In this document: positions 5,201 through 5,667 of the stretch, piece by piece | Layout: each line of letters begins with the position of its first letter | Position numbering within the stretch: position 1 is the first letter of the stretch | Assembly: GCA_965279035.1 (NCBI GenBank) | Contig: OZ257142.1 | Span: 2,080,001 to 2,144,000 of the forward strand | Origin: Bacteroidia bacterium | GTDB lineage: Bacteria; Bacteroidota; Bacteroidia; M30B66 | Direction of reading: 5' to 3' | Length of the DNA: 64,000 bases | Notes under the pieces: model-generated | The model's database searches: none | Seen by the model: only the letters and a program-made list of their open reading frames with translations | Told to the model about the DNA's origin: nothing | Made by a program: the position numbers and the translations under genes

Positions 5201-5298
5201 ATCAAATAAAAAAAGACCAAAGAGTATGAGGCTTTTTTGGGGGGCTAAGTGTTCGAACCTTGACCCTCCCGACTATTTTCGGGATGCTCTGAATCAGC
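5201..5298 (-). repeat. Degenerate direct repeat of tRNA-Val (D-loop to 3' end) plus its terminator, with anticodon arm replaced
   Basis: Aligns to 5554-5653 with a 353-bp offset. TCTGCCTTACAAGCAGA is replaced by TCCCGAAAATAGTCGGGA. Confidence 0.9.
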
Positions 5299-5538
5299 AA
5301 TTAGCTTCTCAATTAATTTTCTACTCTTCCAACTTTTAATTTGTTTTTCTCTTTTTAAAGCTAGATCCTTTGTTTGATAGCATTCTTTATTTCGAATATT
5401 CCAATCAGCTAATTTTCCTGTAAATCCTTTGTGTTGCGAATTATGTTTTCTTAATCTTTCTTCAAGAAAATCCCCAGTATATCCAACATAGTATTAATCT
5501 AATGTTCTGGAATATAGTATATAGACATAAAATGGCAT
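5245..5538 (-). pseudogene. Small GIY-YIG nuclease (UPF0213-like) with one premature stop
   Basis: [45 protein letters not shown]...[21 protein letters not shown]...; TAA at 5494-5496. VY..YVG, R..H and E motifs are present. Confidence 0.9.
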
Positions 5539-5560
5539 ATTGTATTTAAATATATCAAAT

Positions 5561-5590
5561 AAAAAAAGCCCCACGAGTGTGAGGCTTTTT
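5561..5590 (-). terminator. tRNA-Val intrinsic terminator
   Basis: Minus strand AAAAAGCCTCAC-actc-GTGGGGCTTTTTTT. Confidence 0.85.
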
Positions 5591-5592
5591 AG

Positions 5593-5667
5593 TGGGAGCT
5601 ACTGGGTTCGAACCAGTGACCCTCTGCTTGTAAGGCAGATGCTCTGAACCAGCTGAGCTAAGCTCCC
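5593..5667 (-). tRNA. tRNA-Val(TAC)
   Basis: GGGAGCTTAGCTCAGCTGGTTCAGAGCATCTGCCTTACAAGCAGAGGGTCACTGGTTCGAACCCAGTAGCTCCCA folds as a cloverleaf with anticodon TAC. Confidence 0.97.

Follow-up and report, generated by a model that had tools for sequence, protein, structure and literature searches.

A stretch of 64,000 nucleotides from a Bacteroidia bacterium (contig OZ257142.1; the whole stretch is called the window here) carries on its minus strand, at positions 5208-5667, a compact unit in which a gene for a small GIY-YIG nuclease lies behind a tRNA-Val gene and runs into a truncated copy of that tRNA. This unit is a recently inactivated copy of a cassette that occurs across the phylum Bacteroidota. 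The cassette is interpreted, with a probability of roughly 0.55, as a selfish, tandemly amplifying chromosomal element that encodes an Slx1-like nuclease and works like SegB of phages. SegB is a phage GIY-YIG enzyme whose cleavage sites lie within tRNA genes and whose motif, RAWTSGAAC, is similar to the T-loop, according to the sections of PMC13096335 that describe the enzyme. In phage T6, the ladder-like amplification of segB together with tRNA-Tyr is reported in the same sections to need SegB catalysis and two recombination genes of the phage, uvsX and uvsY (PMC13096335).

The tRNA-Val unit and its nuclease family

The unit in the window is anchored upstream by an intact tRNA-Val(TAC) gene at 5592-5667, which was identified with ARAGORN and with Rfam (RF00005 tRNA, 71.8 bits). 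The intrinsic terminator of this tRNA, a hairpin followed by a T-run in the sequence, is located at 5561-5590, and the ATG of the GIY-YIG open reading frame (ORF) appears at 5538, 22 nt past the end of the terminator. The gene spans 5245-5538 (97 codons and a stop), and residues 3-73 of its translation match PF01541 in Pfam with 50.7 bits against a cut-off of 22.6 (E 2.3e-13). The frame is classified as a pseudogene because codon 15 (5494-5496) is an in-frame TAA, so that translation bears out the inactivating stop noted in the original prediction, which had been made from the letters of the window alone.

The last 18 codons of the ORF are overlapped by a 5'-truncated copy of the tRNA-Val gene at 5239-5298, which was delimited by alignment to the tRNA, by the repeat families D1 and D3 and by a covariance model. 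A D-arm remnant, a hairpin arm, a decayed T-arm and the acceptor 3' strand make up this copy. The anticodon arm is replaced by a perfect 6-bp hairpin, TCCCGA-AAATAG-TCGGGA, at 5267-5284, which was located by pattern search and is designated hairpin H; the pattern matches once in the 64-kb window, against 0.01 matches expected. The unit is closed by a second, weakened terminator copy at 5208-5238 (direct repeat D1, 85% identical to 5551-5596). The direct repeats of the unit are offset by 353-355 bp and comprise 46 nt at 85% and 16 nt at 94% identity. Every element that had been listed on the minus strand is present, namely the tRNA-Val, its terminator, the 97-codon frame, the tRNA copy and the second terminator, and the same is true of the swapped anticodon arm and of the frame that runs into the copy.

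Neither an ARAGORN tRNA call nor an Rfam match at E<=10 was obtained for the tRNA copy of the window. A covariance model of the family motif (R1) gives two strong matches in the window, with 71.1 bits for the real tRNA and 60.6 bits for the copy (E 7.5e-16); the model fails to separate the real tRNA-Val from copies because most positions are common to both. The GIY-YIG frame is the only frame of the 353-bp unit, which contains no integrase and has no transposase of its own.

The unit encodes a protein of about 85 amino acids (aa). Its homologues are mostly 80-92 aa long and contain a single Pfam domain. No variation was seen among 32 diverse members at Y6, Y17, G19, R28, H32 and E64 or at 16 other positions, and the window frame retains every one of these residues. 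The Tyr of GIY, the Tyr and Gly of YIG, the Arg and the Glu are taken by us to be the catalytic residues. Most homologues end with the residues ...LIxGSEHPD, and in the longer ones ...KSGGSLVRTQ follows, a stretch that is translated from a tRNA D-arm, a stem of the CCGGA/TCCGG type and a T-arm. The ratio of nonsynonymous to synonymous substitution rates (dN/dS) is 0.05-0.14 in the 6 of 11 pairs with unsaturated dS; in the other pairs the synonymous sites of the ORF are saturated, while the tRNA copy stays identical to the neighbouring tRNA. Judged by these substitution patterns, the protein is under purifying selection and has been kept functional.

A search of the PDB with the family profile returned only two matches, UPF0213 protein BH0048 (1zg2, E 1.9e-8) and 1ywl (E 0.0029), and no NCBIfam, PHROG or PADLOC family matches the protein. 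Like the UPF0213 or prokaryotic Slx1-like proteins BH0048, EF2693 (1ywl), YhbQ and YazA, the cassette protein is a stand-alone domain of the 80-100 aa class that carries no auxiliary domains, and this clade is presented as the minimal GIY-YIG form in the relevant parts of PMC1564403 and PMC7017083. A C-terminal Asn is given in PMC1564403 as typical of the UvrC/I-TevI lineage, and its absence as a mark of the Slx1-like clade. The cassette differs from these proteins in its genomic setting, since the same parts of the two sources (PMC1564403, PMC7017083) offer no link of UPF0213 proteins to tRNA genes, truncated copies or arrays.

The window protein, with its stop read through, has 1291 homologues at E<=0.001, and the named ones are all from Bacteroidota. 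Loci were collected by a scan of one genome per species, in which at least 548 of 596 candidate stretches were confirmed and from which the best 80 loci were kept. Upstream tRNAs were counted in the 73 of these 80 loci that have at least 130 nt upstream of the match. A same-strand tRNA ends within 120 nt before the gene in 53 of the 73 loci, with a median gap of 39 nt, and the enrichment directly downstream of tRNA genes that had been set beforehand as a test is therefore found. The adjacent tRNA is Val-TAC in 49 of these loci, Lys-TTT in two, Met in one and Arg-TCT in one. Among the remaining 20 loci, eight have a same-strand tRNA farther upstream, mostly about one unit off, and one has a tRNA on the opposite strand.

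In 50 of the 53 adjacent loci the spacer between tRNA and gene consists only of the terminator hairpin and T-run, with the ATG directly behind. A TAnnTTTG box, which we take to be the Bacteroidota -7 element, is present in 0 of the 53 spacers. Since the gene has no promoter of its own and its ATG stands right behind the tRNA terminator, it is probably expressed by read-through of that terminator. Many family loci are found at contig ends, as is expected because the units are repeats.

The distribution was further analyzed in a phylum sample of 151 genomes at a match threshold of E<=1e-8. Family matches are present in 93 of these genomes, with 0-21 matches per genome. Five named genomes contain 3-9 family matches each; their close copies stand in tandem behind tRNA-Val, Arg(TCT) or Lys, and their distant paralogues behind Met, Leu, Asp, Pro, Arg(ACG) and Asn genes. 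Among the 29 best new loci of the 151-genome sample, the layout was again found behind genes for Val, Asp, Asn, Ala(GGC), Lys and Gly(GCC); the exceptions are two paralogues, one behind Pro(TGG) and one behind Arg(TCT), in which neither a tRNA copy nor a hairpin was found. The layout thus recurs with at least ten tRNA types and with diverged paralogues.

Four contigs labelled Bifidobacterium, Comamonadaceae, Burkholderiales and Limnohabitans (loci L029, L068, L069 and L071, respectively) carry the Bacteroidota cassette. Locus L029 is identical to the Chitinophagales locus L026 in the first 80 aa of the GIY-YIG protein and in 190 nt downstream, and these labels are probably binning errors. A defence or phage gene was considered as an identity for the nuclease gene and was rejected on the lack of a PADLOC or PHROG match, on the confirmation of only one of 80 viral-contig candidates and on the lack of a plasmid match.

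The tRNA copy and its exchanged anticodon stem

A perfect YCCGN...NCGGR hairpin of at least 5 bp is present at 65 of 74 examinable gene 3' ends, compared with 6 of 257 control windows of equal size taken from these loci. For diverse paralogues the corresponding values are 20 of 28 examinable ends and 5 of 106 control windows. The consensus of 46 aligned copies consists of GGTTCAGAGCA, H, GGGTC, the T-arm, the acceptor 3' strand and the terminator. Hairpin H occupies precisely the place of the anticodon stem, between the retained flanks GAGCA and GGGTC, and its loop varies in length from 3 to 10 nt; in Asn-type copies H follows the anticodon rather than replacing the whole arm. The H helix is paired in 100% of the cells of 46 sequences, and at three of its six pairs both partners have changed (U-A to C-G, C-G to U-A, and A-U to C-G, G-C or U-A). 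The exchange of the arm, which had been judged from the single window copy to be an improbable outcome of random decay, is accordingly conserved and covarying across the family.

In 23 of 29 loci the final 31 nt of the copy show no difference from the tRNA upstream in that locus. The mean identity of this segment is 0.978 to the locus's own tRNA and 0.80 to tRNAs of the same type at other loci, so the predicted ending of each homologue in a copy of its own tRNA is observed. At loci with an upstream tRNA for Lys, Arg or Met, the copy has the D-arm, T-arm and acceptor strand of that tRNA type, and H alone is shared. Copies that match Val, Lys, Arg, Met, Asp, Asn, Ala and Gly tRNAs were identified. 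The local tRNA and its terminator have thus been duplicated as DNA, minus the 5' part of the tRNA; the duplicate is homogenised with its neighbour, and only its anticodon stem has been exchanged.

These data bear directly on the simplest alternative, in which a tRNA gene was duplicated in tandem, a small gene was trapped and the copy decays at random, with the loci alike by ancestry. Tandem tRNA-Val genes that lack the ORF are indeed common in these loci (L065, L069, L128, L130 and L131), and the window unit is visibly decaying. The recurrence of the layout with ten or more tRNA types and with diverged paralogues, the replacement of the anticodon stem by the same H each time, and the identity of the copy to its neighbour while the synonymous sites of the ORF are saturated make this explanation extremely improbable.

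A role at the RNA level was also considered, in which the tRNA-like 3' end would serve as an element for mRNA processing or stability or as a decoy, for example for RNase P, RNase Z or tRNA-binding factors. The combined H and T helices are paired in 98.2% of cells, compared with 78.7% in shuffles and at most 60% when the partners are slid, and the stop of the ORF falls inside the tRNA-like sequence in 42 of 44 loci (25 in the H loop, 15 in the D-arm and two after H; two stops lie before the copy). In addition, a full cloverleaf is called by ARAGORN at a few loci (L003, L131 and L133). However, the acceptor stem forms 3.64 of 7 pairs in 45 copies, which is no better than the 3.57 of 7 in the shuffled control, and the window copy is called by neither Rfam nor ARAGORN. 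The conservation of the T-arm is explained by its identity with the neighbouring tRNA, perfect hairpins could stem from a palindrome mechanism that operates on DNA, and the loop of H is variable in length. All three reading phases are represented where the ORF runs into the copy (30, 8 and 6 of 44 loci). Because the copy has no acceptor stem and is conserved across three reading frames, the feature appears to be kept at the DNA level and not as an RNA mimic. A role at the RNA level is thus very unlikely, and the structured RNA tag or decoy that the original prediction had offered as its second option is weakened by the acceptor-stem result.

The copies with a complete cloverleaf are located at 1825-1902 of L003, at 2186-2263 and 2561-2638 of L131, and at 1385-1465 and 1740-1820 of L133. 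They are named by ARAGORN as tRNA-Ile(TAT) in L003, as tRNA-Stop(TTA) in L131, or as tRNA-Arg(GCG). Calls of Ile(TAT), Stop(TTA) and Arg(GCG) beside tRNA-Val in Bacteroidota are probably cassette copies rather than decoding tRNAs.

Arrays, locus polymorphism and the proposed amplification

Units are repeated in tandem in many genomes. Pedobacter cryophilus has three tandem units that are 89-99% identical, and Marinirhabdus has two that are 99.7% identical. In one relative, eight ORF units with a period of 358 nt are interleaved with five ORF-less units of 132 nt, which retain only the spacer, H, the T-arm and the terminator. Arrays of 14, 8 and 5 copies appear in other genomes of the phylum sample. 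Of 35 genomes from a single genus, 17 matched at E<=1e-20, and copy numbers ranged from 0 to 8. The same tRNA-Val pair was compared in three species whose upstream flanks are 89-90% identical, and 0, 1 and 13 units were found there. The single unit is ORF-less, the 13 units are made up of eight with and five without the ORF, and the distal flank is common to the 1-unit and 13-unit species. Empty alleles, which had been sought, are therefore found together with filled ones among relatives at the tRNA-Val locus. The patchy occurrence, the range of 0-21 copies per genome and the 0, 1 and 13 units at one locus fit the minimal selfish element, lacking integrase and transposase, that had been suggested for the window.

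In the P. cryophilus locus (L084) the tRNA upstream of the array is itself 5'-truncated and has no ARAGORN call, and the first 25 nt or so of a further ORF appear past the last unit, at 2540-2570, before unrelated sequence begins. Tandem arrays without any ORF were observed at 867-1195 of L085 (Marinirhabdus) and at 322-700 of L126, directly upstream of a real tRNA-Arg(TCT) and a real tRNA-Asp(GTC), respectively. In their units, which are 78 and 111 nt long, the 5' half of the tRNA, with its acceptor strand and D-arm, precedes the hairpin. Locus L124 (G003:C1:827800-829000) contains at least six tandem copies of a repeat of about 120 nt; each copy includes TCCCGAATTCATTTCGGGA and lacks tRNA-like flanks.

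The following mechanism is proposed for the selfish cassette. The unit would consist of the stand-alone GIY-YIG gene of about 85 codons behind the tRNA terminator, running into the truncated tRNA copy with H and then into the terminator copy, and the gene would be transcribed from the tRNA without a promoter of its own. Because direct repeats of about 100 bp, formed by the tRNA 3' part and the terminator, bracket the unit, homologous recombination would expand and contract the arrays, and gene conversion would maintain the identity between the copies and the tRNA. Amplification is most likely driven by the nuclease through cuts in tRNA-gene or hairpin DNA, by analogy with SegB, and a nuclease encoded inside the repeat would be expected to raise the rate of the recombination events.

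The comparison with SegB, a free-standing homing endonuclease of the tRNA cluster of T-even phages, rests on the shared placement of a GIY-YIG gene among tRNA genes and on the amplified segB and tRNA segments, which, as portrayed in part of PMC13096335, have the same form as the cassette arrays. SegB differs in being phage-borne and in having a C-terminal part beyond the nuclease core, a truncation of which is described in that source (PMC13096335). The cassette proteins, in contrast, are chromosomal, are about 85 aa long, fall on the Slx1/UPF0213 side of the superfamily and have no PHROG match, and the cassette ORF continues into a truncated tRNA copy that bears a special hairpin. Among the hallmarks of Seg-type enzymes, a core joined to a DNA-binding domain for a long target is not seen in the cassette proteins, which have the core only and no second Pfam domain; presence or absence at a fixed locus is seen, both at the tRNA-Val pair and among the 35 genomes of the genus.

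Integrase-type islands and prophages in tRNA genes resemble the cassette in having an intact tRNA on one side and a partial 3' direct repeat on the other. They are distinguished from it by the size of the cassette unit (353 bp, with no integrase), by its repeat, which reaches through the terminator, by the replaced anticodon stem of its copy and by the stacking of its units in tandem.

Classical homing is a different account of the same units and extends what had been suggested for the window, namely that the nuclease cuts the tRNA gene at or near the anticodon arm and that the copy supplies homology and immunity. In this scheme an intact tRNA gene would be cut in or near the anticodon arm and repaired from the allele that bears the unit, H would confer immunity, and re-cutting of the intact upstream tRNA would add further units. 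The position of H exactly in place of the anticodon stem, the intact tRNA at the 5' end of the examined arrays with H-bearing copies downstream, and the empty and filled alleles among relatives are consistent with homing. Hairpin insertions in the T-arm would also destroy a T-loop target of the SegB type as characterized in part of PMC13096335. Extra copies of H do occur in T-arms and D-arms of tRNA copies (e.g., L013, L020, L043, L063, L068, L073 and L077).

Several observations nevertheless make homing unlikely. The protein is a catalytic core of about 85 aa that has no DNA-binding domain with which to read a specific site, and a cleavable intact tRNA always remains beside the unit. Some paralogues have a normal anticodon arm in the downstream copy: in L100 (Pro), L101 (Arg), L154 and L159 (Ser) and L157 (Val) the ORF overlaps the 5' end of a tRNA whose anticodon arm is normal. 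H is also found at terminator tips far from tRNAs. A view of the hairpin as peculiar to the mimic is not supported, as H occurs in T-arms, in arrays of pseudo-tRNAs that lack an ORF and, throughout genomes, at the tips of terminators.

A second account, in which the nuclease benefits the host, would make the enzyme a structure-specific bacterial equivalent of Slx1, with a role in resolving stalled forks, R-loops or extruded hairpins where tRNA genes are heavily transcribed; the arrays and pseudo-tRNAs would be by-products of the recombination that it promotes. The protein belongs by its profile match to the prokaryotic Slx1-like clade described in passages of PMC1564403, and according to these passages eukaryotic Slx1-Slx4 maintains the copy number of ribosomal DNA (rDNA); the low dN/dS values and the presence of the gene in 93 of 151 sampled genomes are also in keeping with a host function. 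The eukaryotic complex is alike in that it ties a structure-specific GIY-YIG nuclease to the copy number of tandem, heavily transcribed RNA genes (PMC1564403, in the same passages). Eukaryotic Slx1 is unlike the cassette enzyme in that it needs Slx4, has a zinc-finger domain and is a host maintenance factor that is not encoded inside the repeats. The patchy occurrence within one genus (17/35) and a copy number that ranges from 0 to 21 argue against a host gene, arrays of identical copies and ORF-less derivatives resemble the dynamics of an element and not those of a dosage-controlled host gene, and genomes tolerate decayed copies like the pair in the window. A benefit to the host is therefore considered an improbable explanation for the cassette.

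The selfish-cassette interpretation is itself opposed by a number of points. Cleavage by members of the family is a property that we infer, and unequal crossing-over is able to enlarge tandem repeats even where no nuclease takes part. Strong purifying selection and a wide distribution would also fit a gene that benefits the host. No tRNA was found in 11 of the 73 loci within the DNA examined, which extends to at most 1.5 kb. The protein tree (80 members, 82 columns) has 15 of 76 inner branches supported and is too unresolved to show transfer; it contains a Cytophagales clade, a Ferruginibacter clade and also mixed pairs. The one family locus confirmed among 80 candidate stretches from viral contigs lies at a contig end, and plasmids gave no family match; no vehicle for spread between genomes was seen. 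No excision joint across the unit was found in the contigs of the source runs, but those contigs break at the tRNA and carry no weight on excision or expression.

The separate parts of the proposed cassette are already known, as selfish GIY-YIG nucleases, association with tRNA genes and segmental amplification have each been described. A literature search whose scope left out subscription journals and supplements produced no description of a tRNA-linked mini GIY-YIG cassette, of the truncated tRNA end or of the hairpin in Bacteroidota. The combination of a chromosomal unit of about 350 bp, an Slx1-like core-only nuclease, and an ORF fused into a homogenised pseudo-tRNA with an exchanged stem thus seems to be new. 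Supplementary Data 2 and 3 of PMC13096335, according to the part of that paper that refers to them, list SegB homologues and their neighbourhoods and could bear on the overlap with the cassette family.

If the selfish-cassette interpretation is correct, Bacteroidota chromosomes carry a selfish unit of about 350 bp in which a single 85-aa nuclease gene uses the transcription and terminator of a tRNA. The crippled tRNA copy would be its own recombination handle, and tRNA loci would be reshaped into arrays of up to 14 or more units. Nuclease-driven segmental amplification, as for phage SegB, would then occur in bacterial chromosomes as well, by way of a different GIY-YIG branch, and the long uncharacterised prokaryotic Slx1/UPF0213 proteins would gain a concrete context. 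The recurrent contig breaks and the odd tRNA-Stop, Ile(TAT) and Arg(GCG) calls beside tRNA-Val in Bacteroidota assemblies would also be explained.

Hairpin H across genomes and further features of the window

The stem of H is enriched far beyond the nuclease units. TCCCGA-N-TCGGGA sites number 43, 38 and 16 in three genomes, compared with 0-2 for the reversed control. For Flavisolibacter, 44 sites versus one were counted with the TYCCGC variant, which is also the variant of its own units. In all five named genomes the stem variant that is enriched genome-wide is the variant present in their GIY-YIG units. For the sample of 151 genomes, the excess of H was expressed as the log2 ratio of H over the reversed control, a measure in which the control pattern is not palindromic and the kinship of the genomes is uncontrolled. 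The median log2 ratio is 2.58 in the 93 carriers of the GIY-YIG gene and 0.58 in the 58 non-carriers (Mann-Whitney p 5e-10). The excess correlates with GIY-YIG copy number with a Spearman coefficient of 0.61, and of 0.41 after removal of the units' own hairpins and adjustment for the control count.

In Cytophaga aurantiaca (G005, e.g., L108-L123) the 18-mer TCCCGATAGCTATCGGGA is present at about 30 of 38 listed H sites. All 16 of the 16 sampled H sites in this genome are at the tips of intergenic terminator-like hairpins, often nested within TCCCGATCCCGA...TCGGGATCGGGA. The possibility that H is a plain terminator motif or a chance palindrome was ruled out for C. aurantiaca by the recurrent 18-mer and by the 16/16 hairpin-tip sites. 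This conclusion does not extend to every genome, since the control pattern was non-palindromic.

Taken with the nuclease gene, this distribution invites comparison with the repetitive extragenic palindromes (REP/REPIN) and their REP-associated tyrosine transposases (RAYT), which are Y1 transposases of the HUH class. H likewise is a short palindrome dispersed at gene ends and terminators, with one copy beside a nuclease gene, and its abundance tracks that gene across genomes. It differs in that the cassette enzyme is GIY-YIG and not HUH and in that H is placed at the tips of existing hairpins. A direct assignment of H as the REP of a Y1 transposase was rejected, as 0 of 10 PF01797 loci in five H-rich genomes carry H within the flanks examined, about 1.5 kb on each side unless the contig ends sooner.

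A pairing of H with the mini GIY-YIG nuclease, like that of REP with RAYT and built on a different enzyme, is put forward tentatively and is, on the whole, doubtful. DNA hairpins, namely the anticodon and T arms of tRNAs and terminators, would be cut at their tips by the structure-specific, Slx1-like nuclease, and a short palindrome would be written into the break. By this route redundant tRNA copies might be rewritten into pseudo-tRNAs and terminators seeded genome-wide, while the nuclease gene amplifies behind tRNAs. The proposal is favoured by the frequency of H at the gene ends (65/74) and by its occurrence in anticodon, T-arm and D-arm positions and at terminator tips, as well as by the agreement of stem variants in the five named genomes and by the correlation of the H excess with gene copy number. 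A strict link between H and the nuclease is opposed by four H-rich genomes that have no family member even at E<=0.01. It is opposed as well by some Pedobacter copies of H that belong to a dispersed repeat of about 110 nt, one of them in L127 (about 224-335). Most of the genus's 35 genomes contain many copies of this repeat, and the two genomes that have no GIY-YIG match are among them. No clean orthologous empty site was obtained for the Pedobacter hairpin because the site is in this repeat. If the link is real, it would represent a new way for short palindromes to spread in genomes.

Away from the unit at 5208-5667, a tRNA cluster is located on the plus strand of the window at 40063-41994, with genes for Thr(TGT), Tyr, Gly(TCC) and Thr(GGT), and then Trp 1.4 kb on. 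This cluster contains no GIY-YIG unit and no hairpin H.

A second, heavily decayed unit is present on the minus strand at about 2560-2870 and consists of the C-terminal half of the GIY-YIG frame, a degenerate hairpin and a T-arm. It was identified with a profile hidden Markov model (match at 2630-2776, independent E-value 7.3e-5), with the covariance model (2578-2645, 17.6 bits) and by alignment to the first unit. The odd GTCAAGGTT T-arm is common to both units of the window, and since both carry this aberrant arm they probably began as a tandem pair, of which the unit at about 2560-2870 is probably the older member. Both copies in the window are dead relics of the cassette.

The two units are now separated on the minus strand by an insertion sequence (IS) and a split DUF5829 gene (3316-4511 and 4575-5180), which were recognized from their ORFs and from a profile match. 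The IS has two overlapping ORFs, of which the one at 3316-4140 is a DDE_Tnp_1 transposase frame and the one at 4092-4511 is a DUF4372 N-terminal frame. It seemingly splits the DUF5829 gene, because the 201-aa ORF of the latter spans only positions 1-169 of the 265 positions of the profile.

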